DNA of 64,000 nt from a virus (Duplodnaviria > Caudoviricetes). The DNA lies in the IMG/VR virus record IMGVR_UViG_3300028412_000003. One strand, given 5' to 3'. The notes under the pieces were generated by a model, which saw nothing but the letters and a program-made list of their open reading frames with translations, had not been told where the DNA came from and made no database searches. The translations under genes and the position numbers were made by a program. Positions 12,665 to 63,964 of this stretch are shown piece after piece; the stretch's first letter is position 1; every line of letters starts with the position of its first letter.

Positions 12665-12669
12665 GTAAA

Positions 12670-12677
12670 TATTTATC
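12670..12677 (-). promoter_or_regulatory. Late promoter GATAAATA, leaderless (TTTAC-ATG)
   Basis: Direct motif match heading the 12664-9492 operon. Confidence 0.65.
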
Positions 12678-12683
12678 AAAGAT

Positions 12684-13361: not shown

Positions 13362-15597
13362 TTGTTAGCACCTCATGCGTAATGTCAAACTCTAGTGCAT
13401 CATTATGAGCGTTAATTGTAACAGTTCCGCCATTCTTAAGAAGACCAAATAGCATTTCTTTAGCTAGAGGGCGTTTGATCTCGTCGTTTATTAGACGCTT
13501 AAGAGGACGGGCACCATACATTGGGCTAAATCCTTTTTCTGCAAGATAATCAAAGGCTTCGCCAGTCATTTCAATATTGACTCCCTTTTCTTTTACTTTA
13601 AGTTTTAGCTCACGCATGAATTTTCCAACTATCTTAATTATGATTTCCTTAGGCAACTTGCCAAACTTGATAATACCATCAAGTCTGTTACGGAATTCAG
13701 GAGCAAAGAATTTTTCAACAGCTTTTAAATCATATTCCTTATCTAAAGGAGTGCTAAAGCCAATGTTTTTCTTTTCTGCATCTGATGCACCAAGGTTAGT
13801 GGTAATGATAAGAGTTACGTTACGAAAATCTGCAACCTTATTATTTGCACCAGTTAACTTTCCATTATCCATAATCTGCAACAATATTTGAGAAACATCA
13901 GGGTGTGCTTTTTCTATTTCGTCAAGCAATAACACACAGTTAGGATTTTCTTGAATTGCTGTGATGAGCGCACCTGCATTGTCTTCAAATCCAACGTAGC
14001 CTGGAGGAGAACCAATCAACCTAGATACAGAGTGTTTCTCCATATATTCTGTCATGTCAAACCTTACTAGCTTAACGCCTAGTTCTTCTGACAAAGCCTT
14101 TGCTGTTTCAGTCTTACCTACACCAGTTGGTCCCATAAAGACAAAAGAACCAATTGGCTTATCATCTTCTTGCAATCCAGCTTGTGCAATAATAACCTTA
14201 TCAACTAGTGCAGTAACAGCAGAATCTTGACCATATACCTTGCCTAAGATATTCTTTTCAAGGTTAGCCATATTCTCGCTTTCTTTTTCAGCAATTCGAT
14301 CAGCATCTATGTTAACCATATGAGACAGTTCGCGTTGAATATTTTCAACATCTACTGTCTTGTTTTCAGTTTGATTTATCAATTTAAATCGAGAACATGC
14401 AACATCAATAAGATCTATTGCCTTATCAGGCAATTTCTTATCTGGTTGATATTTAACTGACAATTTAATTGCTTCTTTAATAGCACCGTCTGTAATAACA
14501 GCATCATGAAATTCTTCATAATACTGTTTGATAGACAGAAGAATTTCTTCTGCTTCAGATGCACTAGGTTCATTAACTGTAACACGTTGAAAGCGCCTCA
14601 TTAATGCACGATCCTGTTCAAAATACTTTCTGTATTCTTCCCATGTAGTAGAAGCAACAACCTTAACATCGCCCTTACCTAATGCAGGTTTAAGCATATT
14701 AGCCAAGTCATTTGCATTATTAGAAGAACCAGACCCAGCACCATTCATCATATGTGCTTCATCAATAAACAAAACACACTTACCTTTTTTAACAATGGCA
14801 CTCAATACTGCCTTAAAGCGTTCTTCAAAGTCACCTCGGTATTTAGATCCTGCAAGCATTGAACTTATATCAAGGTTGTAAACTGTGTAATCTTTTAGAA
14901 ATTCTGGAACATCACCATTTACAATCTTGTATGCTAGTCCTTCAACAATTGCAGTCTTACCTACACCAGGATCACCAACAAGAATTACGTTATTCTTATT
15001 ACGCCTACCAAGTGAAAGTGCAATACGATCAAGTTCTGCACTACGGGCAATAACAGGATCAATCTTTTTCTGTTTTGCTCTTCTGTTCAGGTCAACGGTA
15101 AAAGTCTTTAGTGCTTTTTGTTCACCTTGTGTGATCTCTTCAGCTTCTATTGCTTCTTCAATTTCTGTATTAACAAATTCAGCAAAAGATGATCGGTCAA
15201 TACCAGCTTGAGTCAAATAATAATAACACATTGACTTCTTTTCATGCAACATACTTATGAGTACATCAGTAAGTTCCATTGTACGACCGCCACTAAACAA
15301 GACCTGTGTAAATGAACGATTTAATACTCGCTCAACTGTTTGAGTCTTCTTTGGCTTATATTTTGTAATTGAAGAATCAACCTTGATATCATCTAGCTTA
15401 GTCTTAAGCATCTTATCTAAATTAGTTTGAACGTAGTTTACCTCTGTTCCGTATCCCTCAAGCAATTTTACAAAATTTTCTTCTGTAAGCATTGCGAACA
15501 ATAGATGCTCTAACGTCACATATTCATGACGTAAATTCTTTGCTATTTCTACTGCTTTTTCGAAAATAGAAGATAGTTCTTTAGACGGTTCGACCAT
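13348..15597 (-). CDS. clpA: ATP-dependent Clp protease ATP-binding subunit ClpA
   Basis: Clp-N domain (RHEYVTLEHLL), two AAA+ modules (GDPGVGKT, GPTGVGKT, LLDEIEKAH), IGF ClpP-docking loop, no ClpB middle domain. Confidence 0.93.
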   Translation of the reverse strand: MVEPSKELSSIFEKAVEIAKNLRHEYVTLEHLLFAMLTEENFVKLLEGYGTEVNYVQTNLDKMLKTKLDDIKVDSSITKYKPKKTQTVERVLNRSFTQVLFSGGRTMELTDVLISMLHEKKSMCYYYLTQAGIDRSSFAEFVNTEIEEAIEAEEITQGEQKALKTFTVDLNRRAKQKKIDPVIARSAELDRIALSLGRRNKNNVILVGDPGVGKTAIVEGLAYKIVNGDVPEFLKDYTVYNLDISSMLAGSKYRGDFEERFKAVLSAIVKKGKCVLFIDEAHMMNGAGSGSSNNANDLANMLKPALGKGDVKVVASTTWEEYRKYFEQDRALMRRFQRVTVNEPSASEAEEILLSIKQYYEEFHDAVITDGAIKEAIKLSVKYQPDKKLPDKAIDLIDVACSRFKLINQTENKTVDVENIQRELSHMVNIDADRIAEKESENMANLEKNILGKVYGQDSAVTALVDKVIIAQAGLQEDDKPIGSFVFMGPTGVGKTETAKALSEELGVKLVRFDMTEYMEKHSVSRLIGSPPGYVGFEDNAGALITAIQENPNCVLLLDEIEKAHPDVSQILLQIMDNGKLTGANNKVADFRNVTLIITTNLGASDAEKKNIGFSTPLDKEYDLKAVEKFFAPEFRNRLDGIIKFGKLPKEIIIKIVGKFMRELKLKVKEKGVNIEMTGEAFDYLAEKGFSPMYGARPLKRLINDEIKRPLAKEMLFGLLKNGGTVTINAHNDALEFDITHEVLTIEEV

Positions 15598-49198: not shown

Positions 49199-49285
49199 TG
49201 GTGCCCGAGGAGGGACTTGAACCCCCACTCTTGTTACAGAAACAGAATTTGAACCTGCCGCGTCTACCAATTCCACCACTCGGGC
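49199..49285 (-). tRNA. tRNA-Leu(CAA)
   Basis: GCCCGAG acceptor, GGAATTGGTAGAC D arm, GCAGG-TTCAAAT-TCTGT anticodon arm, long variable arm, GGTTCAAGTCC, encoded CCA. Confidence 0.93.
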
Positions 49286-49293
49286 AATCTACT

Positions 49294-49455
49294 TTAGTCC
49301 TTTTTAAAATATTCGTTGATATGCTCTAAGTCATCTAAAAGATAATTAATTTTGGGGGTAGGTTCCCCTTGATATCCTTTTTTGAATAAAGCAATTGCTT
49401 CTTCATCTAATTCACGTGGATAAAGAGCACGACGAGTATCTTTTGATTTTATCAT
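49294..49455 (-). CDS. 53-aa hypothetical protein (MIKSKDTRRALYPRELDEE...)
   Basis: Translated by hand; AAGGA RBS; below the ORF-track length cutoff. Confidence 0.55.
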   Translation of the reverse strand: MIKSKDTRRALYPRELDEEAIALFKKGYQGEPTPKINYLLDDLEHINEYFKKD

Positions 49456-49465
49456 TCTTTTCCTT

Positions 49466-49499
49466 AATTAAGGTAGCTGCTCACGCAGCTACCTTAATT
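49466..49499 (-). other. 15-bp perfect hairpin with GUGA (GNRA) tetraloop
   Basis: AATTAAGGTAGCTGC-GTGA-GCAGCTACCTTAATT; contains the HNH stop codon. Confidence 0.75.
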
Positions 49500-50041
49500 T
49501 CACCTTCCCAATCAAACAAAAACTGGGCCCAGTCCGGGTTCGGAATAATGATTGGGTGCTTCTTACGTAGAGTTATCAACTGATAATAATTTGGCTGGTA
49601 AGCCTGATGTTTAGGTTTCCATTCACCTAGTGGCAAACGATGTCCTTTTCTTGTGTTACAAGCTGAACATGCTGCAACGATATTTTCCCAAGTGTGTTGT
49701 CCACCTAGCTTTTGTGGATGAACGTGATCATACGTTACTTCATTAATTACAAGTGGTTTTTCACAATATGCACACATACCATGATCACGATAAAAGAGAG
49801 TGTCTCTTTTAAGTTTAACACCCTTTGGTTTGATCTTTTCTTGTGCATTACGTGCGATAACACTTGGCCATTTCATATCAAGTGTTGGTGTTAGGATCTT
49901 TCGATCGTACTCAAACACTGAATGACAAGTTCCATTAAGAATGCGTATTACTGCATCTTCTGCTGGAATGCTTTCAAGTGGAAATACCGACACCGGCATA
50001 TAATTCGCATTAAGTACTAAAGTTCGAAGGCCCGTAAACAT
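49481..50041 (-). CDS. HNH endonuclease (McrA-like, free-standing)
   Basis: LVLNANY, RDHGMCAYC, DHVHP..LGG..TWENIVAACSACN.RKG. Confidence 0.9.
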   Translation of the reverse strand: MFTGLRTLVLNANYMPVSVFPLESIPAEDAVIRILNGTCHSVFEYDRKILTPTLDMKWPSVIARNAQEKIKPKGVKLKRDTLFYRDHGMCAYCEKPLVINEVTYDHVHPQKLGGQHTWENIVAACSACNTRKGHRLPLGEWKPKHQAYQPNYYQLITLRKKHPIIIPNPDWAQFLFDWEGEIKVAA

Positions 50042-50104
50042 ATCATTTCCTCTCTACATAAGGTCCTCTCCTGTTAATATAGTTACGTTTTACAACGTAA
50101 TTAT

Positions 50105-50133
50105 ATTATAATGCTTGACCATTGCATTGTCAA
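50105..50133 (-). promoter_or_regulatory. Perfect sigma70 promoter TTGACA-N17-TATAAT
   Basis: Consensus match upstream of the HNH-tRNA-ligase unit; overlapped by a 12-bp inverted repeat. Confidence 0.85.
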
Positions 50134-50210
50134 GCATTATTTAGGTTTATGCTTTGGAGTATGTGCTCAACTCCGCAGCGATTGTTGCGGACTGAGCTGT
50201 TCTTAAAATC

Positions 50211-51491
50211 CTACAACTGTAAGAAAATAAAGAACCCAATTGCCGCTAATAGGGCTGCTACGCCCACTCCGATCAATATTTTGTTCTTTTCAAACGAAAA
50301 TCCAGATGATGTTTTATATTCTTCTTCTGGCATATTAATCGGTATTTCTTCTTTAGGTACATCTTGTATAGGTACTTCTGTTTCGTATAATAATTTTGAT
50401 GCATCTAAAAATCTATTGTTATGGTCTTTTCCGCCTGTGTCTACTGTTTGTGTTGTTCCATTAGTTAGAAACGATCCAACTACTTCCCTAACATCGTCTA
50501 GTGTGTTCATTTGCGATGTTCGTGTTTCAAGCCATGCTGCTAGAACTCCAGCTACGTGTGGACAAGCCATACTTGTTCCACTTAATACTGCCTTTGTTTC
50601 ACCCGGCCAAGTTGATATAATACCAACTCCTGGCGCACTAATTTCAATATCTTTACTGTAATTACTAAAAGGAGCAATTTTCTTTCTATTGTCTGTTGCT
50701 CCAACAGTGATAACATTTGGTGCTTCGGCTGGAACAATTTCAGTTATGCTATCAAGATGTTTTCCTTCGTTACCAGCTGCTGCAATAACTATTGCACCAC
50801 TGTTAACAAGATAGGTTACTGCTTCTGTTATAGGATTAAATTTCTTTTGTACAGCTGATACTGAAAAATTAACCACAGCAGGTTTACCTGCTCGTTGAGT
50901 TCTGCGATGATTGACTATAGCACCAATCCCGTCTACTATTTGAGAAATAGTACCACTTCCGTCAACCTCTAATACTTTAACTGCATAAAGAGTAGCATTA
51001 TGAGCAATACCATATTCGGAAGAACATATAGTTCCCGCTACATGAGTTCCGTGCCCGTTGTCATCTTCCCAAGGATGTGATCCAACAGCATTAACTTTAG
51101 GTAGAGTAGAGTGTTGTGCAACCCCTGTATCTACAACGTACACGTCGACTCCTGCACCTTTATACTTATGTGCACCTGTTACGTTAATCGCGCTTAAAGC
51201 TGCGGTTGCGCTTGATACTCCTACGGTTCCTTGCACTGTTTTCCCTAGACCCCAGTCTAAGTTATCTGCATTTAATCCTACTGTTTCTTCTCCATCCGAA
51301 ATACCTTTAATGTCTTCGTCAGAATATTCAGTTACAGGAACGCCACCTAGCTTGTCTATTTTGGAATCAAAATAGACTAGTGTTTTCATAAAGTCATGTT
51401 GCCGAATATTCTTTGCACCATTTTCTAAAAGAGTTTCACTAGCCGATTTGAAATTTTCTTCGTTCTTTAATCCTGCTATATATTGTTTCAT
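50211..51491 (-). CDS. Subtilisin-like S8 serine protease with C-terminal membrane anchor
   Basis: Catalytic VVDTG, NGHGTHVAG, GTSMACPHVAG; oxyanion AAGN; C-terminal TM ILIGVGVAALLAAIGFFIFL; start MKQY is 5 nt after GATAAATA. Confidence 0.9.
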   Translation of the reverse strand: MKQYIAGLKNEENFKSASETLLENGAKNIRQHDFMKTLVYFDSKIDKLGGVPVTEYSDEDIKGISDGEETVGLNADNLDWGLGKTVQGTVGVSSATAALSAINVTGAHKYKGAGVDVYVVDTGVAQHSTLPKVNAVGSHPWEDDNGHGTHVAGTICSSEYGIAHNATLYAVKVLEVDGSGTISQIVDGIGAIVNHRRTQRAGKPAVVNFSVSAVQKKFNPITEAVTYLVNSGAIVIAAAGNEGKHLDSITEIVPAEAPNVITVGATDNRKKIAPFSNYSKDIEISAPGVGIISTWPGETKAVLSGTSMACPHVAGVLAAWLETRTSQMNTLDDVREVVGSFLTNGTTQTVDTGGKDHNNRFLDASKLLYETEVPIQDVPKEEIPINMPEEEYKTSSGFSFEKNKILIGVGVAALLAAIGFFIFLQL

Positions 51492-51496
51492 ACGCA

Positions 51497-51504
51497 TATT
51501 TATC
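51497..51504 (-). promoter_or_regulatory. Late promoter GATAAATA, leaderless (TGCGT-ATG)
   Basis: 5 nt before the ATG at 51491. Confidence 0.6.
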
Positions 51505-51515
51505 CTTCAGTCAAG

Positions 51516-51542
51516 AGAAAAGGACCAAAAAGGTCCTTTTCT
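51516..51542 (-). terminator. Rho-independent terminator of the hfa-like operon
   Basis: AGAAAAGGACC-TTTTT-GGTCCTTTTCT 11-bp stem with U-rich 3' arm. Confidence 0.75.
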
Positions 51543-51557
51543 GTAGTAGTTTTAAGA

Positions 51558-52436
51558 TTAGTCGTTGAACTTATTAGTCTGGCTAACACCAGTTGACGAA
51601 CCAACTGCGCTTACGCTCTGACTAAAGTTACGACCAACTACGTTAACCTGTAGCCCAGATGCTGCCACCGGACCAAAGTTAGCAGAACCAACACCAAGAA
51701 CAGCGTTGTTCTGTGTGCCGTCGGTGTCACGGTTAAGTTGAGTTACACCAACTGATGCACCAGAAGCACCAACAGTCTGTGTTCCCTTACCAACGAGCAG
51801 GTTAATCTGTGTACCAGATGCTGCCACCGGAGCAAGATTTACAGCAACAACACCAGCAGTGATGTTAGTCTGGTCATCTTCACCAAAGTTTTGCTTGTTT
51901 GTCTGTGTGACAAACGAACCAGCACCACCAGCACTTACGCTCTGGGAAGCCTTACCAACAAGCAAGTTACCCTGCAAGCCAGATGCTGCAACTGGTGCAG
52001 TATTAAGTGCTCCAACAAGAACGGTAACATTGGTCTGATCATCGTCCGAGTCTACGTTCTTCTGATCAACCGATGCCTGAGCACCAAATGCACCAACGCT
52101 CTGGGAAGCCTTACCAACAAGCAAGTTACCCTGTGCACCAACTGCTGCAACTGGTGCAACATTCAATGCTCCAACAAGAGCTGCAACATTGGTCTGGTCA
52201 TCGTCACCGTCAACGTTCTTCTGATCAACGCTTGCAATAGCGCCAACGCCAGTAACATCCTGAGATGCCTTCTGTGCGAATGCAGTACCCTGCACGCCAG
52301 TTGCAGCTACAAAACCAGTGTTAAGCGATACAACACCAAGAGATGCATTGTTCTGGTCCTGTGCATTTGCAGCGCCTGCACCAAGGCCGATGACCAGTGC
52401 GAGAGCCGCGGTAGTTGAAAGAAATGTATTCTTCAT
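51558..52436 (-). CDS. Secreted Q/N-rich repeat protein, HfaD/curlin-like (putative amyloid or beta-solenoid subunit)
   Basis: Sec signal ending AANA; five ~53-aa repeats Q.N...N..PVAA.G.Q.N...SQ.V.A.G...V.Q.N. Confidence 0.65.
   Translation of the reverse strand: MKNTFLSTTAALALVIGLGAGAANAQDQNNASLGVVSLNTGFVAATGVQGTAFAQKASQDVTGVGAIASVDQKNVDGDDDQTNVAALVGALNVAPVAAVGAQGNLLVGKASQSVGAFGAQASVDQKNVDSDDDQTNVTVLVGALNTAPVAASGLQGNLLVGKASQSVSAGGAGSFVTQTNKQNFGEDDQTNITAGVVAVNLAPVAASGTQINLLVGKGTQTVGASGASVGVTQLNRDTDGTQNNAVLGVGSANFGPVAASGLQVNVVGRNFSQSVSAVGSSTGVSQTNKFND
51937..52133. repeat. 38-bp exact direct repeat (51937-51974 and 52096-52133) inside the HfaD-like gene
   Basis: ACGCTCTGGGAAGCCTTACCAACAAGCAAGTTACCCTG occurs twice, 159 bp (53 codons) apart. 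Confidence 0.9.
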
Positions 52437-52459
52437 ATTTTAGTTCTCCTATTTAAAGA

Positions 52460-53332
52460 TTACCGGTCAATCCGGCTATTGCTTGCAGAACGGGATTGTG
52501 CTGCTTGCTCAATTTTACGCTCAGTGTAAACCTTTTCGAGTTCGGCAGTTTCACTGGCGTCCATAACGTCGTCAACGTTATCAATCATAGTACGACACTT
52601 AGAAAAATCATCCTTATAAAGATCAGACAATAGTTCAAATGCCGCAAGTTTTAGCATGTTTCGCGTTGCAAACCCTACTGCTTCGCGCTGTTGTTCACCA
52701 ATATTCATAGTGACAAGCGTTTCTCCAAAGAATCGTCCAATGCCCATACCATAATCATAAGCGACAATTTGCTTATCAAGTGATGCAGAAGCAACGATCT
52801 TAGAATTCATTGTGTTGGTTAGGAAGATATCCATACCAACTGCCATCCGATACTGTCGTGCCTTAGCACCAATACCTGCAATGCTTACTTCAAATCCGCC
52901 ACCTGGAATAAAGTCCAGCGTGTTAATAGAACCAGTTGCGTGAGCATCGGATCCTACCCAACCAAGTGTACGACCAACCTTCATCTCAAGTTCCATCACC
53001 TTGGTGTTACGACGGTTAACAACCGAATTAGGTTGTGCCTTAACAAAAGACGCCTGAAGGATATCACCAGCAGCTTGGGTCATGTAATAACCATTACCCT
53101 CTGCACTAAACTTACCAGTCGAATCTTCAATTTCTCCAACAGCAAGATTAAAGTTTGCTCGTCCAGCAAGTTCTGTATTCAAACAAGCAAGTGCTTCGTC
53201 GTATACAGTTTTAACATCTACAACAGGAGGTGGACCCTGAATAAGATTCATGTTTTCACCTGGGGGAGTCATAGCAGTACATGCACCAAGTGATAGTGCA
53301 ATAGTAGTGGTTGCGAGTAGCTTTTTAATCAT
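52460..53332 (-). CDS. hfaB: CsgG/HfaB-family outer-membrane secretion lipoprotein
   Basis: Lipobox LGA-C; EALACL...LAVGEIEDSTGK...MTQAA...GSINTLDF...Y.M.VGMDIFLTN...KQIV...G.FF...EAVGFA.R matches the CsgG/HfaB layout. Confidence 0.8.
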   Translation of the reverse strand: MIKKLLATTTIALSLGACTAMTPPGENMNLIQGPPPVVDVKTVYDEALACLNTELAGRANFNLAVGEIEDSTGKFSAEGNGYYMTQAAGDILQASFVKAQPNSVVNRRNTKVMELEMKVGRTLGWVGSDAHATGSINTLDFIPGGGFEVSIAGIGAKARQYRMAVGMDIFLTNTMNSKIVASASLDKQIVAYDYGMGIGRFFGETLVTMNIGEQQREAVGFATRNMLKLAAFELLSDLYKDDFSKCRTMIDNVDDVMDASETAELEKVYTERKIEQAAQSRSASNSRIDR

Positions 53333-53342
53333 TTGTAACTCC

Positions 53343-53846
53343 TCAGTCAGACTTAACGGCGGAGCCGAAAGCATTATTAGTGGTTACGGGTGAATCCTTG
53401 TAATTCTGCGTAGCAGAACCATTTACTGCACCACTATTAGTAGAGCCGGATCCGGAGGTATTATCTTGGCTACCAACGTTAGCTGAACTGTCATCACCAA
53501 CATTAACTGTTTGAGAATTTGACTGATCGATAACTTCTTGCGAGCCAATAGTATTGACTTCGTTCTTGTTGGTAAATTCTTCAAATGCAGAACAGCCGCC
53601 TGCCTTACCACCTTCGCCAGCTTCACAAATAATGCTTTGTGTAGAAGTAGAAGTAGAATTTACAGAAGTTCCAAATCCACGACTTTCACGCATGTCAATA
53701 ATGACAGCTTGATCGCGTAGATCATAAAACCCCTTAAAGGTATAGTTGCAGTCCCAATCACAGGATGGCTGACTTTGTTGAGCCATAACTGGCATTGCAA
53801 ACCCAACCATACCGGCAAATAGTGCTGCGCCTAGTATTGTTTTCAT
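53343..53846 (-). CDS. Secreted S/T/N-rich protein, HfaA-like
   Basis: Sec signal (…AMPVMA-QQ); NTIGSQEV...NSQTVNV...Q.N.SG low-complexity tail; first gene before the hfaB-like gene. Confidence 0.5.
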   Translation of the reverse strand: MKTILGAALFAGMVGFAMPVMAQQSQPSCDWDCNYTFKGFYDLRDQAVIIDMRESRGFGTSVNSTSTSTQSIICEAGEGGKAGGCSAFEEFTNKNEVNTIGSQEVIDQSNSQTVNVGDDSSANVGSQDNTSGSGSTNSGAVNGSATQNYKDSPVTTNNAFGSAVKSD

Positions 53847-53942
53847 ATTGCATTCTCCTTGCAAATTTTAGAAGACTGTTGCCAGCCTGTGTTGCACCTT
53901 ACAACACTTACCTAACGAATTTTAAGTTTTATATGTAAATGT

Positions 53943-53971
53943 ATATTACTATAGTAACAGTGGTTTGTCAA
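53943..53971 (-). promoter_or_regulatory. sigma70-type promoter TTGACA-N17-TAATAT for the hfa-like operon
   Basis: Direct match. Confidence 0.75.
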
Positions 53972-53986
53972 TTGTTATTTTAATTT

Positions 53987-54877
53987 TTATTGATGTTTTT
54001 TAACAAGCTCTTCTAGTTCACGGACGAGTCTGCTATGTTTGTCTTTCTCTACCATTGCTTCTTTTAGAGAACCATAATGCATCTCCATGCACTCAATCAA
54101 AATCTTTTTGATTTCATCTTCGTTTGGTCTTTCTGGAAGAGAGCTATTTGCATAAAGAGTTTCAAGAGATTTTTCTTTCTCTTCAAACCATTCGTTGATT
54201 CGATCTAAACTCCATTCCCCCCTGCGAATTGATTTATAAACTTCAGAATCTCGATCAAGTCTTAAATCCCCAGTTGACATAATCTGTTCAGCTTCGAGTA
54301 ACAACCGAACAACATGATACGCAAATTTAACATCAAATCCAAATTTATCAATCGATATTTGTCTTTTAGGATTTGATCGATTTGCACCCTTATTGATTTT
54401 AGACATTTGAGACATTGCATATCCCCGGAACTTATAATAAGATCCTTTGTGTAGAAATTTCTTTCTATTAGAACGAATGTGTTCATAAATTGCGGTAGAA
54501 TGCAAAACACAACGTCTTGGAAGAAAAAGATTATCTACCATGTTAGGATTGTTTTCCATAGCAAGTTGAACAAATTTAACAATAGAAAATATTGTTAAAT
54601 CATATTCTTTCTTTGAACTTTTGTCTTCAATGTGATGTTGCTGAAATTGATCAAACCTTTGAACTTGTTGTCCAAATCCTGTAATCTCACCAGATAGATG
54701 GGGAAATACTAAATCTTTAGGTGGCATACAAAATCCAATAATATCCATGTCGGATGAATCATTACTTGCACCATATGCAACAGAACCAGTCCAACCTTCA
54801 AACATAGTATTATTAGGTAACCATGCAGGTGGATTGATCAATCCTAATCCGTCAAGTCTATTAATTACACTAGCCAT
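53987..54877 (-). CDS. Pol-beta-superfamily nucleotidyltransferase (RlaP/YcgL-like)
   Basis: GSVAYG..ND.SDMD motif, NPNMVD.LF, FRGYA..Q, KFAYH.VRLL. Confidence 0.85.
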   Translation of the reverse strand: MASVINRLDGLGLINPPAWLPNNTMFEGWTGSVAYGASNDSSDMDIIGFCMPPKDLVFPHLSGEITGFGQQVQRFDQFQQHHIEDKSSKKEYDLTIFSIVKFVQLAMENNPNMVDNLFLPRRCVLHSTAIYEHIRSNRKKFLHKGSYYKFRGYAMSQMSKINKGANRSNPKRQISIDKFGFDVKFAYHVVRLLLEAEQIMSTGDLRLDRDSEVYKSIRRGEWSLDRINEWFEEKEKSLETLYANSSLPERPNEDEIKKILIECMEMHYGSLKEAMVEKDKHSRLVRELEELVKKHQ

Positions 54878-54904
54878 AATTTTTCCTTTTAATATACTAT
54901 AATT

Positions 54905-54932
54905 ATTATACTACATTATCAAAGGTTGTCAA
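54905..54932 (-). promoter_or_regulatory. sigma70-type promoter TTGACA-N16-TATAAT
   Basis: Match upstream of the nucleotidyltransferase. Confidence 0.7.
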
Positions 54933-54934
54933 CG

Positions 54935-54942
54935 GATAAATA
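54935..54942 (+). promoter_or_regulatory. Late promoter GATAAATA (plus strand)
   Basis: 8 nt before the ATG at 54951; back-to-back with the early promoter. Confidence 0.6.
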
Positions 54943-54950
54943 TTATTGAG

Positions 54951-55430
54951 ATGGAAGAAACTAAAAATGATTTTAAAACAATGTTTTCTATACTATGGAG
55001 AAACAAAACTGTCTTCTTAAGTATAATTGGTGCAATGGTTTCTATTTCAACCGGCGCCGCATTTGTTTACAATCATTTTGCCAAACAACAAGATGTGATA
55101 CAACAATATTGTGAACGACAAGCTATTGATGCAGATACTTCACTTGATATACAAATGTCGAGACACGAAATTATGATAGTAGTTTCTGATACAATTTTAG
55201 ACATGTTTGATAATATAGACGACGAGTCTGAAGTTAGTAAAAAATGGACCAAGGCTTGGAGAACGGTTAAAGATAAACATAATAATGCTTTGACTAGACT
55301 AACAAAACAGCCAAAATATTGGAATCCAAACATAATACGAGAATGTATTGAATCTCCTATTCCTCATATTAAGGTTAAAGGTGTACTTGGTACTACTATA
55401 AATGATGATTTGTTAAGGGGAATTCAATGA
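54951..55430 (+). CDS. Single-TM membrane protein
   Basis: TM VFLSIIGAMVSISTGAAFVY; late promoter; coupled to the next ORF. Confidence 0.65.
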   Translation: MEETKNDFKTMFSILWRNKTVFLSIIGAMVSISTGAAFVYNHFAKQQDVIQQYCERQAIDADTSLDIQMSRHEIMIVVSDTILDMFDNIDDESEVSKKWTKAWRTVKDKHNNALTRLTKQPKYWNPNIIRECIESPIPHIKVKGVLGTTINDDLLRGIQ

Positions 55431-55756
55431 GAGTTTTAATTTTGGTTTTCTTTTTATTATTTTCGTTTGAAGTAATAGCTGGTTCTGTATCCAAACAGAG
55501 AAATGATCCTATTCTACAATCCGATGTGTATGAAGAAATTATAATAATGAATCAGTATCTTATTGAGACACAAAGAGATTATGGATATATAGACACGGAA
55601 ATAAAAGCACTTCGAAATAGACTAATATCTTTAGAAGTTTTAAAACTTTATGATTTAGATCCAGGTATTGAATCTGAACGTCAACAACTTATAAGAATTA
55701 TTACAGATTATATTGTACGTTCGGAAAATGAAGCAATTAATAGATTAGAAAAATAA
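55427..55756 (+). CDS. Small secreted helical protein
   Basis: Signal MRVLILVFFLLFSFEVIA; ATGA overlap. Confidence 0.65.
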   Translation: MRVLILVFFLLFSFEVIAGSVSKQRNDPILQSDVYEEIIIMNQYLIETQRDYGYIDTEIKALRNRLISLEVLKLYDLDPGIESERQQLIRIITDYIVRSENEAINRLEK

Positions 55757-55777
55757 TTCTTCATGAATTAATATTCA

Positions 55778-55811
55778 TGAAGATAGGTCGGTTTTAACCA
55801 ACCTATCTTCA
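55778..55811. terminator. Bidirectional terminator between convergent units
   Basis: TGAAGATAGGT-c-GGTT / AACC-a-ACCTATCTTCA stem; a second palindrome at 55758-55783 overlaps it. Confidence 0.65.
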
Positions 55812-55819
55812 AACTTAAA

Positions 55820-56380
55820 TTAAATGTCTTTGAAAACATTATTTGTGATGTTTTGCAATCCTGTTCCAAAGACTTTGTAACACCAATTCCATATCATTCG
55901 TATCGGATCATTTAGCAAAGTCCAAAACGCACTCCATGGCCAAAAAGTAGCCCAAAACGTTATCTGAGCTTTATTTTCAGAAACAAGAGGAGGATAATTT
56001 CCTTCTGGATAATTTCTTTCTAATATAACCCACTCATTAAATTTTAGTGTACTTGTTTGTGTATCATATTTCTTTCTCAGATTTTTAACTATGTCCTTTA
56101 TTCGATGCATATAAAAAATCCATTTTACAAAAGCCCAGGTCAATCCACCTAGAAAATATGCAACGACCCAACTAAATGCTTCAACTGGATTTGATGTAAT
56201 CCAAGTAAACGGATTATACGGAGTAGCAATTTGTACGAACAACAAAGTAAGGATAGCAATACCAGTTGCCCAATATGGACTATCAGTCTCAATAGAAGCG
56301 ATAATACAGAAAGAAGATATACAGACGATAACCCAAAATAGAATTCCACTTGCAGCAATAAATGGTTCAATACCAAACAT
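55820..56380 (-). CDS. Multi-TM membrane protein
   Basis: Four hydrophobic segments; start MFGIEP. Confidence 0.7.
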   Translation of the reverse strand: MFGIEPFIAASGILFWVIVCISSFCIIASIETDSPYWATGIAILTLLFVQIATPYNPFTWITSNPVEAFSWVVAYFLGGLTWAFVKWIFYMHRIKDIVKNLRKKYDTQTSTLKFNEWVILERNYPEGNYPPLVSENKAQITFWATFWPWSAFWTLLNDPIRMIWNWCYKVFGTGLQNITNNVFKDI

Positions 56381-56398
56381 AATTTTACCTTTCAAAGT

Positions 56399-56425
56399 TA
56401 TAGGGTGGGATAATCCCACCCTATA
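56399..56425 (-). terminator. 12-bp hairpin after telA
   Basis: TATAGGGTGGGA / TCCCACCCTATA with a 3-nt loop. Confidence 0.6.
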
Positions 56426-56428
56426 TAA

Positions 56429-57532
56429 TTAACGAGTAGCAAGCTGAGCTTTCTTGAGTGCTTCACCTGCTATGTTCATCCTCACAACTTCGACTGCACG
56501 TCGAACTTTAGCTTCTTCATAAATTGCTTGAGTTTCTTCAAGCATTGCAATCATTTGATTGTTTGCATATTCAATTGTTTCGATTGAAACAATTCCACGT
56601 TCTAGTGCTCGACGCGCCTCAACATTTGCATCTTTAATCGTTATTGATCCACTCTTAAGTAGATCGTCTGTTATGTCAGAGATAGCATTCATTGAATCTG
56701 CAACTTCTTTAGTGCGAGCTGCTGCAACCAAAACTGCCATCTGTTGTTTCCACAACGGAATAGTATTAACCTTAACAGTTTCAATCTTTTCAACTAGTCC
56801 CGCATCATTCTTTTGAGTAGTTCGGATACCTGGCAAATTCTGTCGGATAATTTCTCGAGTCAATCGAAGATCATGTATACGACGCTCAACCTTGTCACGC
56901 ATATCTGTCTTATCAGCAAATTCTGCGCCTGCCATTGCATCCTTGCTTGCTGCTGCCTTCGACTGCAATTTTGGCAAGATATTATTAGTGATCTCAGCCA
57001 TTGCTCTATCACCAGCTGCAATTGCAGCTTCAAGTCCACGGAAATGATCGATTTGAGCTTCGTACATACGGTCGAGCTTTTCAACGTCTTCCATCATTTT
57101 AAGTTGGTCTTTATTCAATTTAGCAACTACTGCGTCAATCTGACCTTCAACTGTAGAATAAGATTCTAGCCACTTAGCAACAGGTGATACCTTACCCATT
57201 AGCTTTCCAAAGAATCCTGGAGACTCTGTACCTTGCAACACTGAAAGATCCATGCCCTTAATAGACAAAGCAATGTTGTTCAATCCTTCGCCAATAGGAC
57301 CAAGGTCTTTGTTCTTTACACCATCCAACAACATTTCTGCTGCGGTAGTTGATGCTCTCTGTTTTGCAGATGCATAAAGAATAATATCATTTGTGTTGCT
57401 GCCTTTAAACGCTGCCATCAACACGTCATAGTCTTTTTGTACTTCTCCATCAACTGGAGCAACAATAAGTTCTTGTCCAGTTACATCTGCTACAATAGAA
57501 TCAACTGTAGGGGTTGCCATTTGAGTATTCAT
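56429..57532 (-). CDS. telA: TelA/YaaN toxic anion resistance family protein
   Basis: Long helical protein; Y..VEGQID.V, LDRMY...F..LE..I.AG, RIHDL, Q.ND..LV.KI....NTIPLWK.Q, D.T..LL, LERGIV.IET; AAGGAG RBS before MNTQ. Confidence 0.9.
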   Translation of the reverse strand: MNTQMATPTVDSIVADVTGQELIVAPVDGEVQKDYDVLMAAFKGSNTNDIILYASAKQRASTTAAEMLLDGVKNKDLGPIGEGLNNIALSIKGMDLSVLQGTESPGFFGKLMGKVSPVAKWLESYSTVEGQIDAVVAKLNKDQLKMMEDVEKLDRMYEAQIDHFRGLEAAIAAGDRAMAEITNNILPKLQSKAAASKDAMAGAEFADKTDMRDKVERRIHDLRLTREIIRQNLPGIRTTQKNDAGLVEKIETVKVNTIPLWKQQMAVLVAAARTKEVADSMNAISDITDDLLKSGSITIKDANVEARRALERGIVSIETIEYANNQMIAMLEETQAIYEEAKVRRAVEVVRMNIAGEALKKAQLATR

Positions 57533-57545
57533 GTGTAATTTCTCC

Positions 57546-58172
57546 TTATACACCACTTAGTTTCATTTTCTTATCAAGGACGCTTGTTGCTACACTTAGG
57601 TCAAGAAGATCGTCCTCTAGATTTTTCTCGTATTGTGCTTCAAAGGTATGTTCGATTGTGTCAAGAAGTTCTTTAACTTCTTGCAGGGTGTCCGAAACGA
57701 CATCTCCCTTACTTTCTAGTTTAGCATAGCTGCTAACAATGTCAACAGTTTTATTGAGGTATAGATCAAGAAAGTCTCGAGAACGTTTAATATCTTCTGG
57801 GTCATCTAAGAAACCTTCAAAAATACGATCAGCAACTCTTGCAATCTTTTCAATTTTAAGCGAGACACCAGGATCTTCAATTTGCTGACTAATTTCAAGA
57901 AGTTTTTCAACTCTTTCCATACCAACTGAAATTACATTTTCTAGTTCTTCCTTGCTTACCTTTGTTCCAGAAAATTCTCTCATTAACATTTCGGTAACAG
58001 TAAGTTGTCGCGGCATCATTAAAAACATTCCAATGCTGAGTAGTATTGCCTGAATAATTGGAAAGACTGTATCAGCATAAGGAAAGAAATCAGGAGAGTT
58101 CATAAAAGAAAAAAGAACCAGTCCTAAAAACAATCCCATAACTCCAGCGCCTAGTCGATAAATGTTAGGCAT
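57546..58172 (-). CDS. xpaC: XpaC (5-bromo-4-chloroindolyl phosphate hydrolysis) family protein
   Basis: Two N-terminal TMs; FLDLYL.K.VDIV..Y..L...F..QYEK..EDD.LDL.V...VL; adjacent to telA as in xpaC-yaaN operons. Confidence 0.8.
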   Translation of the reverse strand: MPNIYRLGAGVMGLFLGLVLFSFMNSPDFFPYADTVFPIIQAILLSIGMFLMMPRQLTVTEMLMREFSGTKVSKEELENVISVGMERVEKLLEISQQIEDPGVSLKIEKIARVADRIFEGFLDDPEDIKRSRDFLDLYLNKTVDIVSSYAKLESKGDVVSDTLQEVKELLDTIEHTFEAQYEKNLEDDLLDLSVATSVLDKKMKLSGV

Positions 58173-58818
58173 TTTTAACCTCCGTAGATTTAGTATAACT
58201 CGGATCAGTATTCATCCATTCATAATCAAGTCTTCCTGATTCTTTAGTATGAGGAAGCATCATTTTTTCAACTCGATAGACTGCATAAAGTTTTTGACGG
58301 CTTATACCAAGTCGGTCTCGCAACTGTTTTAGAGTAAAATCTCTAAATCTTTCAAAAGGAAAATGTCCTAAATCTGACGCAAGAGATTCCTTACCTTTAT
58401 TGTAACCTAAATCCAATGCTAACAAATCTTCGTTGCTAAATTTGTAGAATTTAGGATATAAATATTTGCCAATGAAACGGAAGAATGAAAAATGCCAAGG
58501 CATACAATTCCTTGTTGCTCCCATTGTAAATCCAATTACAAATGCTTCATCTTGAGGAAGCAATCCTCTTCCTAACAAGCAATGAATTGCATCATGTCGT
58601 TCTAGATTAATTGCACCAGGCAAAGGGAACAATTCTGGAAATCTTATGGGAGGATTAGGATTTTCAAACAACCTAACTATAAATGGAATGTCTGATGGGT
58701 TACTAGCAGGCAACGTATCAAGAACTTCACCAAGGGTTAGGTGATCATTATCAAGCCCAGGGTTCCAATTTTTCCAGGATACATTCTCTTCTAATGCAGG
58801 CCAACTATGTCCAATCAT
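58165..58818 (-). CDS. Coq4-like HDxxH protein
   Basis: ERHDAIHCLLG...DEAFV.GF and C-terminal FPFE...TL.QLR..LGI resemble the Coq4 family. Confidence 0.45.
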   Translation of the reverse strand: MIGHSWPALEENVSWKNWNPGLDNDHLTLGEVLDTLPASNPSDIPFIVRLFENPNPPIRFPELFPLPGAINLERHDAIHCLLGRGLLPQDEAFVIGFTMGATRNCMPWHFSFFRFIGKYLYPKFYKFSNEDLLALDLGYNKGKESLASDLGHFPFERFRDFTLKQLRDRLGISRQKLYAVYRVEKMMLPHTKESGRLDYEWMNTDPSYTKSTEVKNA

Positions 58819-59273
58819 AGATCACTCTCCACACTAACTACTGCACGACTCAATCGAGACTGGAAGTCACGATTGGATTCGCCGTTGCTTTTATTAAGTG
58901 GCTTATCTCCACCAACTCCAATTGTTTTAATTTTGTTATTAACACCCGCTTTGAGCAATAGAGCTTCTATTGCACTTGCGCGACGCTTGCTTAACTCAAC
59001 GTTAGCCGCGCTGTCGCCGCTTGTGCCCGTGTGTCCAGTTACTACAATAGTATATGCTGCGTTTGTAGATGCCAAATCTGCAATGATTTCAATCTTTGGC
59101 ATGTCACGAGGATCAACTGAAGTACCTCTACTAAAATTAAGGGTAAACTCATAGTCTTCATTGGCACTACCAATTGAGTGCATATACATACCCGAAAGCA
59201 CTGTTGCACCAATCAACATTGCGCCAAAGAAATTAATTGGACGCAGGACAAATTTTTGTTCTCTCAATGACAT
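58815..59273 (-). CDS. OmpA-C-like peptidoglycan-binding protein with N-terminal TM
   Basis: IVVTGHTGTSGDSAANVELSKRRASAI...L...GV...I...GVG. Confidence 0.85.
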   Translation of the reverse strand: MSLREQKFVLRPINFFGAMLIGATVLSGMYMHSIGSANEDYEFTLNFSRGTSVDPRDMPKIEIIADLASTNAAYTIVVTGHTGTSGDSAANVELSKRRASAIEALLLKAGVNNKIKTIGVGGDKPLNKSNGESNRDFQSRLSRAVVSVESDL

Positions 59274-59290
59274 GATTGCTCCTATATGTT

Positions 59291-59320
59291 ACTAGGGGAG
59301 TTTTTATTAACTCCCCTAGT
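59291..59320 (-). terminator. 12-bp hairpin between the vWA and OmpA-like genes
   Basis: ACTAGGGGAGTT / AACTCCCCTAGT. Confidence 0.65.
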
Positions 59321-59328
59321 TTAACACG

Positions 59329-60069
59329 TTATTTTGTGAAAGTCAACGGTTGATCAAAGTTTGCACTTTCAGCAAGGACTGCCTTCATGCTTTCCTTAAG
59401 TTCGACAATATTACCTGCTGTACGGAATTCAACAAGTCCTGGTTGATAAAGAGTATGACCTTTATCTATACAAAATCCTGCAGTGAATACTTCAATTGGA
59501 GTATTCACTGCTATGAAGTTAATGTTATTCCGTAACACACTAGCATCACCAGCAGCACCATCTGTTACAATGAGGATACGATAATTACCATATCCTCTCT
59601 GAGCCTGTGCTTGTGAAAGCAACATTTGATATGCTTCGTGTACTGCCCCGCCTAGTGGTGTTCCTCCGTCGGGTCCAACTCTATTTAGAACTTGTCTAAT
59701 GTTGTTTTGGTTTTGTAATCCTAGGGGTGTTCGAACAGTACTAATCCCGTTCTCAAACACAACAAATCCAATAGCCATATCATCAGGCACAAAATTAATA
59801 AACTCGTCAATTGCTTTCTTGCTGGCAAGGTCCTTGCTAATTGACGTGTCATTACACGTTGCTTCTGACATACTTCCTGACATATCCAAGATCAAAACCA
59901 AATTCTCTTGAAAATAATCATCTGCTAATACAGAAGCATTTTCTGAAATTGGCGGCCAATTCTCAAACGTCTTAGAGGTCTGTTCCTGTACCACAATATT
60001 CTCTTCATTACAAGCACCAAGAACAAGCATTAGAGTAGCTGCTGCCACAATACTAAATATTTCCTTCAT
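59329..60069 (-). CDS. von Willebrand factor A domain lipoprotein
   Basis: Lipobox VLGA-C; MIDAS DMSGS, GGTPLG, ILIVTDG. Confidence 0.88.
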   Translation of the reverse strand: MKEIFSIVAAATLMLVLGACNEENIVVQEQTSKTFENWPPISENASVLADDYFQENLVLILDMSGSMSEATCNDTSISKDLASKKAIDEFINFVPDDMAIGFVVFENGISTVRTPLGLQNQNNIRQVLNRVGPDGGTPLGGAVHEAYQMLLSQAQAQRGYGNYRILIVTDGAAGDASVLRNNINFIAVNTPIEVFTAGFCIDKGHTLYQPGLVEFRTAGNIVELKESMKAVLAESANFDQPLTFTK

Positions 60070-60094
60070 TGTATATCTCCTTTCTTGAGACTTG

Positions 60095-61807
60095 TTAGTT
60101 CAATGGAGTAAAGACTGATTCTTCAGCCTCAACTCGAACAATACGGAATACAACTCTCATGTTGCTCTTCCATTCACTCTCAGTCTTTGGAGCACACGGA
60201 CCATTACAGGTATTGCCGGTAGAAGGATCATTGATCCCCTTTCCAAGAGTTGCAAACTGTGAAGGATCCATATTAATACCAAGTGAATTAGCATACCTAA
60301 TAACACTATCCTGCACGGCAATTGACCGTGACATGCTCAAGTTACGAGCTGCTTGTCGTGCACGTTTGAGAACCAATTGAGACTCACCATCCTGTTGCTT
60401 CTTTAGATAACCCAATGGATCTGAATGACCTTCAATTGTAATAACAGCACCACCATACTTAGAAGCAAGACCAATAACTCGCTTGAAGTCATCTTCATAC
60501 TTTAGAGGGTCGAAGTTTGTTTGATTGGGTTCAAAGTAGATCTGAAACTCAAACAAAGAAGCATCACTTAGTTGTCCAGTCTTGTCCATCTTGTCAATGG
60601 TCCTGTCAAGTTCAGCTTCGTTAAATTTAGGTTTTTCAACCCCTGCTGTATCATTAAGTCCATCTTTAAAGACATCGTAATCCCAACCAGCATGTGCCAA
60701 AGTGTATGTCTTTGACATCAATCCAAGATTAACTAGCATTGGTTGTGTATCGTTATTAACTCCAAGCCATGATCGAGGTTCTGTTGCACTAACCCACTTT
60801 GTGTTACCACGGAACCCTGTTGTTTCTGCATCAAGCCAAAGACCAGTTGCACCTGCAATGTCTCCAGTTACACCAAGTAGGTGTTTACTAGCTGTTGCAT
60901 ATATAGTGTCTGCTGGTGTTCCACCAACCTTCAATGTTTCACGGGTTGATTCTTCAGCAAGCATAAGCCCATGTACGAAATTTTGTACCTGTTCCTTGTT
61001 TGCATCAAAATAATCTTTGCGTACAACATAAACATCAGAAATTAGTCGGTTTAGAGTTTTAGTACTCAACATAATTCGAGCACCACTTACAGATCCTTCG
61101 GCGCCCGTACCAACAGTGCCACCTGAAGTCATAGCAAGTGCATCAGGAATAATCATAAATGCAGCATCAATTTCACTGTCTTCTGCAAACGCACTAGGAG
61201 GAGATGAGCTTTCTCCTGTTAGTTCTTTAGTCCATTTAATCGTAACATCATTTACAGATAGTTTAGCGTCATCTAGAATAGTAGTAAGATATTCGACGTG
61301 CGGACCATATGCTTGCAATGCAATTGTTTTGCCTTTGAGGTCTGCAGGAGATTTGATCCCTCCCTTAACAACAAGTGCATCACCACCATTTGACCAACTC
61401 AACTGATAGATTGCAATCATCTTAGTTCGAGGATCTGTTTCGGTCAAGTCAGCAGCCATGTTCAACATACCTTGTGTACCACGTAGAAAAGGGCTGGTAC
61501 AAGAAAGATAATCTGACACTTGTTCACTAAAAACATCTTTTCGTGTCAAGTTTGCATTGATATTAACTAGCTCAAACAAACTGTCTGATTCAGTGTTAAG
61601 AGAGTTACCATTTGCAACAAGCGTAGGAATATCTCCGCCCCATGCAATCATAGGAACCTTCAATGTTGACTGAGAACGACAGTCGGAAACAGAAGTGTTC
61701 ACCACGTTCCGCAAAGGAGGACTGTTAACATAGTCAGCAGCTGATACTGCATTTCCCATCACTGCAAGCAAACCTAGTGCTCCAATGGTAGAAGTAATCT
61801 TCTTCAC
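60095..61807 (-). CDS. Periplasmic solute-binding (NMT1/THI5-like) domain fused to a C-terminal OmpA-like domain
   Basis: Signal peptide (…NAVSA), SNGGDALVV...DLKGKTIAL, ISDVYVVRKDY; C-terminal IYFEPN...IEGHSD...NLS.SR...V...NMRV; GTG start. Confidence 0.8.
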   Translation of the reverse strand: MKKITSTIGALGLLAVMGNAVSAADYVNSPPLRNVVNTSVSDCRSQSTLKVPMIAWGGDIPTLVANGNSLNTESDSLFELVNINANLTRKDVFSEQVSDYLSCTSPFLRGTQGMLNMAADLTETDPRTKMIAIYQLSWSNGGDALVVKGGIKSPADLKGKTIALQAYGPHVEYLTTILDDAKLSVNDVTIKWTKELTGESSSPPSAFAEDSEIDAAFMIIPDALAMTSGGTVGTGAEGSVSGARIMLSTKTLNRLISDVYVVRKDYFDANKEQVQNFVHGLMLAEESTRETLKVGGTPADTIYATASKHLLGVTGDIAGATGLWLDAETTGFRGNTKWVSATEPRSWLGVNNDTQPMLVNLGLMSKTYTLAHAGWDYDVFKDGLNDTAGVEKPKFNEAELDRTIDKMDKTGQLSDASLFEFQIYFEPNQTNFDPLKYEDDFKRVIGLASKYGGAVITIEGHSDPLGYLKKQQDGESQLVLKRARQAARNLSMSRSIAVQDSVIRYANSLGINMDPSQFATLGKGINDPSTGNTCNGPCAPKTESEWKSNMRVVFRIVRVEAEESVFTPLN

Positions 61808-61845
61808 TTTGAGTCTCCTTGATTGTGTAAAAATTCTACATTATT

Positions 61846-61874
61846 ATTATAATAATAATACCAAAAAAAGTAAA
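61846..61874 (-). promoter_or_regulatory. sigma70-type promoter TTTACT-N17-TATAAT for the envelope/stress cluster
   Basis: Direct match. Confidence 0.6.
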
Positions 61875-61881
61875 GACAAAA

Positions 61882-61910
61882 AAAGGTGAAAGCATTGTAC
61901 TTTCACCTTT
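61882..61910 (-). terminator. Rho-independent terminator after tRNA-Arg
   Basis: AAAGGTGAAAG / CTTTCACCTTT stem followed by a T-run. Confidence 0.8.
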
Positions 61911-61929
61911 GCAAACTAGTAACTAAGAT

Positions 61930-62006
61930 TGGTGTCTCCGGCAGGACTTGAACCTGCAACCTTTGCCTTCGGAGGGCAATGCTCTATCCAGTTGAGCTAC
62001 GAGGAC
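61930..62006 (-). tRNA. tRNA-Arg(CCG)
   Basis: TAGCTCAACTGGATAGAGC D arm, TTGCC-CTCCGAA-GGCAA anticodon arm, GGTTCAAGTCC, encoded CCA; acceptor has a C4:A69 mismatch. Confidence 0.9.
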
Positions 62007-63235: not shown

Positions 63236-63405
63236 CGACTACTCCATTTTAAGATAAGCAATGTTTTCTTGGGACAATCATCTAGATAGATCTTATTCAC
63301 GTATTCTTCAAATGAATACCCTGTATCATTTATATACCAAGAATGATCTCCATTTGGATATTCAACGGCCGGTCCATCTTCTTCTATCACAAGTCCATTT
63401 TTCAT
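63232..63405 (-). CDS. 57-aa single-repeat paralog of the HRTDGPA-repeat protein
   Basis: Translated by hand: MKNGLVIEEDGPAVEYPNGDHSWYIN...YSFEEYVNKIY...KKTLLILKWSSR*. Confidence 0.65.
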   Translation of the reverse strand: MKNGLVIEEDGPAVEYPNGDHSWYINDTGYSFEEYVNKIYLDDCPKKTLLILKWSSR

Positions 63406-63964
63406 TGACTGCCCATTTTAATATAAAATGTGTCTTTTTAGGAGAATCATTTTTATAGAGTCGATCTATATATTTTTCAAATGAATATCTTCTATTGTTT
63501 AAAAACCAAGATCGATCCCCGTTAGCAAGTTCAACAGCTGGTCCATCTGTTCTATGCTTTTTGCCATCTAAATACCAATAACGGTCTCCGTTTGGGTATT
63601 CAATGGCTGGTCCATCTGTTCTGTGAAGTTCGTTATTTTGTAACCAACGACGTTCTCCATCTGGATATTCAATAGCCGGTCCATCTGTTCTGTGAAGTTG
63701 GTTGTTTTGAAACCAGTGACGAGTTCCATTTAGGTATTCAGCGGCTGGTCCATCTGTTCTATGCTTTTTTTCATTCTGTAACCAAAAACATGTTCCATTT
63801 GCGTATTCAATTGCTGGTCCATCCGTTCTGTGATGTTGATTATTTTGAAACCAGTGACGAGTTCCATCAGCAAATTCAGCGGCTGGTCCATCTGTTCTGT
63901 GAAGCTCGTCATCTTGGAACCAACGACGATTTCCATTTTTATCTATCTCTAATCCATTTTTCAT
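63362..63964 (-). CDS. MORN-variant (HRTDGPA) repeat protein
   Basis: Six 23-aa repeats HRTDGPA.EY.NG.R.W.QN. Confidence 0.85.
   Translation of the reverse strand: MKNGLEIDKNGNRRWFQDDELHRTDGPAAEFADGTRHWFQNNQHHRTDGPAIEYANGTCFWLQNEKKHRTDGPAAEYLNGTRHWFQNNQLHRTDGPAIEYPDGERRWLQNNELHRTDGPAIEYPNGDRYWYLDGKKHRTDGPAVELANGDRSWFLNNRRYSFEKYIDRLYKNDSPKKTHFILKWAVNEKWTCDRRRWTGR
63500..63925. repeat. Six tandem 69-bp coding repeats
   Basis: Recurrent GCTGGTCCATC(T/C)GTTCT(G/A)TG at 69-bp spacing; boundaries approximate. Confidence 0.85.

Follow-up and report, generated by a model that had tools for sequence, protein, structure and literature searches.

A six-gene, importer-less SBP-OmpA/vWA/XpaC/TelA unit in large phages, with a predicted complex between its vWA lipoprotein and its SBP-OmpA protein

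Operons of the type PspA/Snf7-AAA+-ABC ATPase-permease-PBPB+OmpA (ABC, ATP-binding cassette) were described from comparative genomics by Ravi 2024 (mSystems, PMC11237479), who proposed envelope remodelling linked to solute binding. Ter-type TelA and TerF vWA proteins were found in jumbo phages by Iyer 2021 (Viruses, PMC7824862), with exclusion or xenobiotic tolerance as the proposed role. A third relative is the xpaC-telA (yaaN) pair found in Bacillus and Listeria (lmo1966-lmo1967 in the latter); loss of telA function in a Listeria mutant raises nisin sensitivity 4-fold (PMC12791056). Here we analyse a locus at positions 55820-61874 of a 64,000-nucleotide stretch (the window) of the IMG/VR virus record IMGVR_UViG_3300028412_000003 (Duplodnaviria; Caudoviricetes). 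It holds seven co-oriented minus-strand open reading frames (ORFs), the first of which fuses a solute-binding protein domain to an OmpA-like domain (SBP-OmpA), and its first six genes form a unit that recurs in a group of large, aquatic phages and phage-like contigs.

This locus resembles each of the described systems in part. As in the operons of Ravi 2024, a PBPB+OmpA fusion stands alongside a coiled-coil membrane-stress protein, but the phage-borne unit has TelA and XpaC in place of PspA, no ABC genes and no AAA+ ATPase alongside, and it includes vWA and Coq4-motif genes, neither of which is in the text of that paper. Pfam gave no PspA match among the proteins of the six-gene unit. Like the Ter genes of Iyer 2021, the locus places TelA together with a vWA protein on a large phage genome, but here the vWA protein is an exported lipoprotein, and OmpA partners are absent from that paper. 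Among the seven genes and three neighbours scanned, no Pfam match to TerB/TerD, TerC or PRTase/HAD was found. The PF10112 gene is immediately followed by the PF05816 gene, i.e. an xpaC-telA pair of the same two families in the same order as in Bacillus and Listeria, but in the phage the pair is linked to four more genes, periplasmic or accessory, of a diderm host. We found no paper on the TelA, XpaC and vWA combination (most subscription journals lie outside the search coverage), on the six-gene, importer-less, Coq4-motif phage variant or on a vWA-OmpA interface. A reading of the sequence alone (the sequence-only reading) knew of no description of the complete set in a phage; related sets had been described (PMC11237479, PMC7824862). 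What is new is the transporter-less phage variant with its Coq4-motif gene and the predicted vWA/SBP-OmpA complex; the operon type and TelA in jumbo phages were already known. The genes are as follows.

60095..61807, minus strand: gene 1, SBP-OmpA, 570 amino acids; exported TauA/SsuA/Thi5-fold domain and OmpA-like wall-binding domain
59329..60069, minus strand: gene 2, vWA lipoprotein, 246 amino acids; lipobox Cys20, full metal-ion-dependent adhesion site (MIDAS); predicted partner of the gene 1 OmpA domain
58815..59273, minus strand: gene 3, N-terminal membrane anchor and OmpA-like domain (Pfam OmpA)
58165..58818, minus strand: gene 4, soluble putative metalloprotein with a Coq4 motif (HDxxH-x11-E), 217 amino acids
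57546..58172, minus strand: gene 5, XpaC (PF10112); two membrane segments and a helical cytoplasmic part
56429..57532, minus strand: gene 6, TelA (PF05816), 367 amino acids; long coiled-coil hairpin, ATG start with a Shine-Dalgarno site
55820..56380, minus strand: gene 7, membrane protein from a large family that is mostly viral; adjoins the module without being a conserved part of it

The seven genes and the domains proposed for them by the sequence-only reading were confirmed by ORFs, Pfam and fold, and the placement of the products across the envelope was likewise supported; the idea of a seven-gene module had to be given up. Pfam matches for genes 1-7 were NMT1 and OmpA (OmpA below the cut-off), VWA, OmpA, none, Halogen_Hydrol (XpaC), TelA and none. 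Genes 1-6 occur in the same order, with no importer alongside, in the sister phage L001 and in L098, L100, L090 and L105, so that the expected co-occurrence was found for six genes. Gene 7, in contrast, was present in none of the 80 bacterial loci, only its first 17-22 codons are retained in L001, and its best homologue is surrounded by ClpX, EF-G and TROVE genes; a homologue 4.7 kb upstream in the huge phage LR756511 is probably there by chance. Gene 7 may share a transcript with the others here, yet it lies outside the conserved unit. The L001 copy occupies the same locus, beside RlaP, HNH and ligase genes, and that of L100 has an RNA ligase and an endolysin as neighbours. The L105 contig stops 650 bases past TelA, L096 is without TelA and L086 is cut.

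The unit has a bacterial counterpart. For gene 1 the searches gave 1,977 or more homologues, and 274 matches in GTDB. Neighbourhoods were read for the best 80 bacterial loci, in all of which the gene 1 homologue is followed by a vWA gene; finer counts come from the 48 loci in which the downstream sequence extends for 9 kb or more. Of these 48, 46 have a second OmpA protein (in most cases a 515-amino-acid SBP-OmpA), 40 a 280-amino-acid membrane protein at the position of XpaC, 38 TelA, and 35 and 33 the permease and ATPase of an importer, respectively. The alphaproteobacterial-type form has nine genes (SBP-OmpA, vWA, short OmpA, Coq4-like, XpaC, TelA and three genes of a TIGR03427-type ABC importer); this parent with its ABC importer is present in L112, which is the locus L044 of a Micavibrio metagenome-assembled genome, and in L116, while L071 differs from it only by the missing Coq4-motif gene. 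In comparison with the eight- or nine-gene bacterial operon, phage gene 1 is about 50% identical and the first genes follow the same order, whereas the second SBP-OmpA is shortened in the phage to an anchor and OmpA, a Coq4-motif gene is inserted, XpaC and TelA are of the classical kind and the importer is missing. Homology and gene order thus show the phage unit to correspond to the first six genes of the alphaproteobacterial-type operon, the three importer genes having apparently been lost. The set is not specific to phages: the unit is a shortened copy of a bacterial operon in which an ABC importer is usual (33-35 of 48 loci). The absence of an ABC permease or ATPase noted by the sequence-only reading holds for the operon and for the whole 76-kb record, which is about 21% complete.

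The importer suggests a nutritional role, in which SBP-OmpA would concentrate a small N- or S-containing solute in the periplasm and pass it to the host's own TIGR03427-type importer. Its presence in 33-35 of the 48 bacterial loci and the SBP of the bacterial importer, which is a TIGR03427 member (461 bits against a cut-off of 334), agree with such a role, and LR756511 retains the whole importer and the Lak phages its permease and ATPase genes. A NitT/TauT-type SBP, GimA, binds guanidine at 97 nM (PMC12704784). However, exactly the three importer genes were lost in the present lineage, and gene 1 itself scores merely 19 bits on the TIGR03427 profile (cut-off 334) and 45 on that of SsuA (cut-off 164). 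Some alphaproteobacteria (L007, L114, L206 and L207) also do without an adjacent importer, with five genes and no TelA, and no guanidine riboswitch was found in the window or in five loci. We therefore consider nutrient capture rather unlikely. Still less probable, to a degree that makes it doubtful, is a decoy, i.e. phage subunits that join the host's own system and jam it. The set on the phage is partial and gene 3 is without an SBP domain, as a decoy would have it, but bacteria, too, have the short gene 3 as well as the form that lacks an importer, all motif residues are intact, and the system to be jammed is rare in the class Alphaproteobacteria (5 of 401 sampled genomes).

Phages captured the SBP-OmpA system more than once, as indicated by the importer-bearing operons in other large phages. 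In the huge phage LR756511.1 (L091, 9923-18485) the operon is complete and includes the whole importer; Lak phages such as Lak-B4 (L093, 5944-12409) have a partial operon, in which SBP-OmpA stands with permease and ATPase genes. In LR756511 the place of TelA is taken by a coiled-coil, PspA-like protein (by reading of its sequence; it has no PspA family match), and in Lak-B4 a PspA-like coiled-coil protein likewise replaces TelA. The SBP-OmpA proteins of the six-gene type, by contrast with these separate captures, form one branch together with those of L096 and L086 (support 98/98), so that a single acquisition of the six-gene unit by this phage group is the simplest reading of the tree; in a wider tree the branch groups with short-OmpA alphaproteobacterial copies (97).

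The unit is old. Between the record and L001 the module proteins are 65-83% identical, like the ligase (68%) and RlaP (83%), and only 18-33% of four-fold sites are identical, i.e. synonymous sites are saturated. Saturated synonymous sites combined with conserved proteins show that the unit has long been inherited and maintained under purifying selection. Neighbouring genes of the island in which it lies have decayed in L001, while the six-gene unit was kept. G+C content at third codon positions (GC3) tracks each genome, at 0.24-0.33 here and 0.68-0.78 in L001 (about 0.28 versus 0.72); this compositional shift is large for close phages with syntenic genes 65-83% identical, and perhaps marks a host switch. 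These data largely refute a recent neutral hitch-hiker or an assembly chimera. A variable island between tRNA genes, with neighbours eroded in L001, is where a passenger might be expected, but the saturated synonymous sites and the matching GC3 contradict recent arrival. Read depth is level between phage core and module (29.2 versus 29.7), and the module is therefore no assembly chimera, which leaves this explanation highly improbable. One joint between 55958 and 61960 in run X2, with a 39-letter side inside tRNA-Arg and a depth above that of the phage, was taken as another organism's tRNA.

The SBP domain of gene 1 has the TauA/SsuA/Thi5-like class II fold (AlphaFold2 predicted local distance difference test score, pLDDT, 90; Foldseek E 2e-11), and its OmpA domain keeps the peptidoglycan-binding Asp/Arg pair, D463 and R494, both invariant. 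The MIDAS of gene 2 (DxSxS...T...D; D62/S64/S66/T137/D170) is invariant in 45 sequences. Gene 3 corresponds by homology to the C-terminal domain of the bacterial operon's second SBP-OmpA; GHTG replaces GHTD, so the canonical Asp is absent, as it is in full-length bacterial homologues, while R98 is invariant. The description of gene 4 as Coq4-like stands for its metal motif (H75, D76, H79 and E91, invariant in 60 homologues) but less so for its family: gene 4 itself has no match to Coq4 PF05019, 12 of the 60 homologues match weakly (best E 2.6e-4), and a sequence search of the PDB gave no match. Gene 4 falls in an Atlas cluster with 14% Coq4 (score 0.90). Most of its 80 metagenome homologues stand alone, so gene 4 was rejected as a module-specific gene; of its relatives, only the nearest subfamily belongs to the module. 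TelA has no clear structural relative. With a ClyA/HBL-like pore former and a PspA/ESCRT-III fold in mind, its fold matches were read for AhlC, ClyA, Vipp1 and Snf7; these came up no better than E > 0.1 or Z 9-10, in the midst of generic coiled coils, and the likeness to Vipp1 and Snf7 is at noise level. XpaC and TelA show no homology to each other (probability 4%).

The vWA lipoprotein is predicted to dock on the wall-binding groove of SBP-OmpA. The complex of the two proteins scored 0.78, whereas the best control scored 0.00; the pair is one that the sequence-only reading had named for multimer prediction. A score of 0.78 was reached by 58 of 80 solved pairs and by 2 of 110 mismatched pairs, counts that are approximate, with alignments and Mg user-supplied. 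Single runs scored 0.78, 0.34 and 0.82, shared at least 61% of contacts and gave the partners a pLDDT of at least 81. In the model the interface is formed by the OmpA domain of gene 1, away from the binding lobes: G159-G161 of vWA lie on Q485/N489, and E234, an invariant C-terminal residue, lies at D463/L490 in the peptidoglycan groove. The contact positions with the lowest predicted error are near-invariant. A grip of the vWA MIDAS on the acidic C-terminal tail of gene 1 was also considered and is absent from the model. TolB bound to Pal competes with peptidoglycan for its groove. The vWA model resembles this arrangement in that the groove where an OmpA-like domain binds peptidoglycan is filled by a partner, but TolB-Pal has no homology with vWA/SBP-OmpA and serves as an analogy only.

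On the best reading, to which we give an even chance, the phage unit would be a device that maintains envelope integrity during infection. The six genes would be expressed from a host-type promoter, and SBP-OmpA and the anchored OmpA protein would tie the membranes to the wall. The vWA protein may compete with peptidoglycan for the OmpA groove, as TolB does on Pal, and because of this competition the contact could be switched by ligand or by the condition of the wall. Inner-membrane XpaC would recruit TelA, and TelA would line and stabilise the cytoplasmic face much like PspA, a role suggested by the replacement of one gene by the other (LR756511; Ravi 2024, PMC11237479) and by the nisin sensitivity of the Listeria telA mutant. 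The probable target of the Coq4-motif protein is a lipid of the membrane or a quinone. The phage would thereby keep its host energised and intact through a long infection, with exclusion of rival phages perhaps as a side benefit. Early expression, which the sequence-only reading had proposed along with membrane protection or exclusion, may be part of this. Several observations weigh against this proposal. One of the three complex runs reached only 0.34, and the interface residues, taken together, show no excess of conservation over the remaining positions (p 0.25 and 0.19). TelA was modelled with low confidence (pLDDT 63), as a long hairpin whose fold matches are generic coiled coils. Most bacterial copies adjoin an importer, pointing to transport, and L086, L090 and L105 are taken as phages from their neighbours or tree position only.

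Superinfection exclusion could instead be the main task, the unit acting as a Ter-like barrier to DNA entry by rival phages or plasmids, as Iyer 2021 (PMC7824862) proposed for jumbo-phage TelA and vWA (Ter) genes. TelA homologues are present in 146 phage records, the TelA of phage Phosso occurs with XpaC, SPFH and YqiJ genes, and periplasmic parts anchored to the wall would fit a block to entry. The unit is without TerB/C/D, however, PADLOC matches nothing in it but a generic MotB domain, and in the loci read the bacterial parent adjoins an importer and not defence genes; we regard exclusion as the main task as unlikely. The YqiJ-SPFH-XpaC-TelA arrangement of Phosso (L092, 4783-8963) and L095 is a second type of TelA module in jumbo phages.

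The envelope-maintenance device would be read from one promoter, as the sequence-only reading had proposed, and the internal hairpins it noted also withstood examination. Shine-Dalgarno-like sites precede the seven ORFs, which overlap twice (4 and 8 nucleotides) and are otherwise separated by gaps of 13-55 nucleotides. The control elements are as follows.

61882..61910, minus strand: terminator-like hairpin with U-tract (z -3.7), insulating the operon from tRNA-Arg 61930-62006
61846..61874, minus strand: sigma70-like promoter TTTACT-17-TATAAT, 10/12 consensus match
59288..59327, minus strand: intergenic hairpin after vWA (z -5.5), in the sister phage with altered sequence
56399..56425, minus strand: hairpin after TelA (z -3.7), in the sister phage with altered sequence
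55778..55811, minus strand: strong hairpin, probable terminator (z -6.9), separating gene 7 from the convergent gene 55427-55756

The region holds about as many sigma70-like sites as chance would give (22 versus 19). Sites with a -35 box, 17-nucleotide spacer and -10 box are found at the same position in L001, L105 (a perfect consensus) and L086, and -35 boxes in L096 and L100. Each hairpin was compared with 200 shuffles; those after vWA, TelA and gene 7 beat 200/200, and the first two recur in L001.

The 76-kb record encodes PolB, ClpA and DNA ligase, as well as tRNAs and GroES-, PhoH-, ThyA- and tail-fibre-like proteins (read from sequence); its PolB is closest to that of the Sinorhizobium jumbo phage Phosso (50%). 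The public runs that cover it best are lake-water metagenomes, and gene 1 is also present on a 228-kb contig. The module sits in a variable island (49199-62006, tRNA-Leu to tRNA-Arg) rich in envelope genes, which includes an RlaP nucleotidyltransferase gene (53987-54877) retained in L001. Three genes at 51558-53864 (minus strand), for a secreted protein of 173 amino acids, a CsgG-family lipoprotein and a secreted repeat protein, resemble Caulobacter hfaA-hfaB-hfaD or curli secretion, and L001 has only a remnant. A subtilisin-like protease with a C-terminal membrane anchor (50211-51497, minus strand) has in L001 (9920-10489) an in-frame internal deletion that removes most of the catalytic part. 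At 63362-63964 (minus strand), where the window extends 341 bases beyond the contig, lies the gene for a protein of short HRTDGPA repeats, on which reads from related copies of other sources pile up. L001 further carries a GOLLD RNA (RF02032, 180 bits; 232-694) that overlaps a tRNA gene upstream of the module, and a 17-kDa glycine-zipper lipoprotein (1885-2349). On the phage-like contig L096 an Acb5-family gene and an LpxC-like gene lie just downstream of the module (12383-15481).

A bolder form of the proposal, which we hold to be unlikely, is that the unit is an importer-independent trans-envelope switch of large alphaproteobacterial phages, in which the acidic C-terminal tail of vWA would mimic peptidoglycan, release the wall-tethered ligand sensor and so control a membrane polymer of TelA and XpaC whose task is membrane repair or a block to superinfection. 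If this were true, the six genes kept by the phages would be the smallest set with which an unsolved but widespread bacterial system can work. Resistance phenotypes have been described for TelA and XpaC with no mechanism known for either, and the SBP-OmpA/vWA operon is a common one. That a phage lineage lost the importer and kept the six genes suggests that the importer is dispensable. The compact 5.4-kb unit is available for expression, and the predicted vWA-OmpA interface names residues to mutate. The unit adds to the envelope-remodelling functions of large phages.

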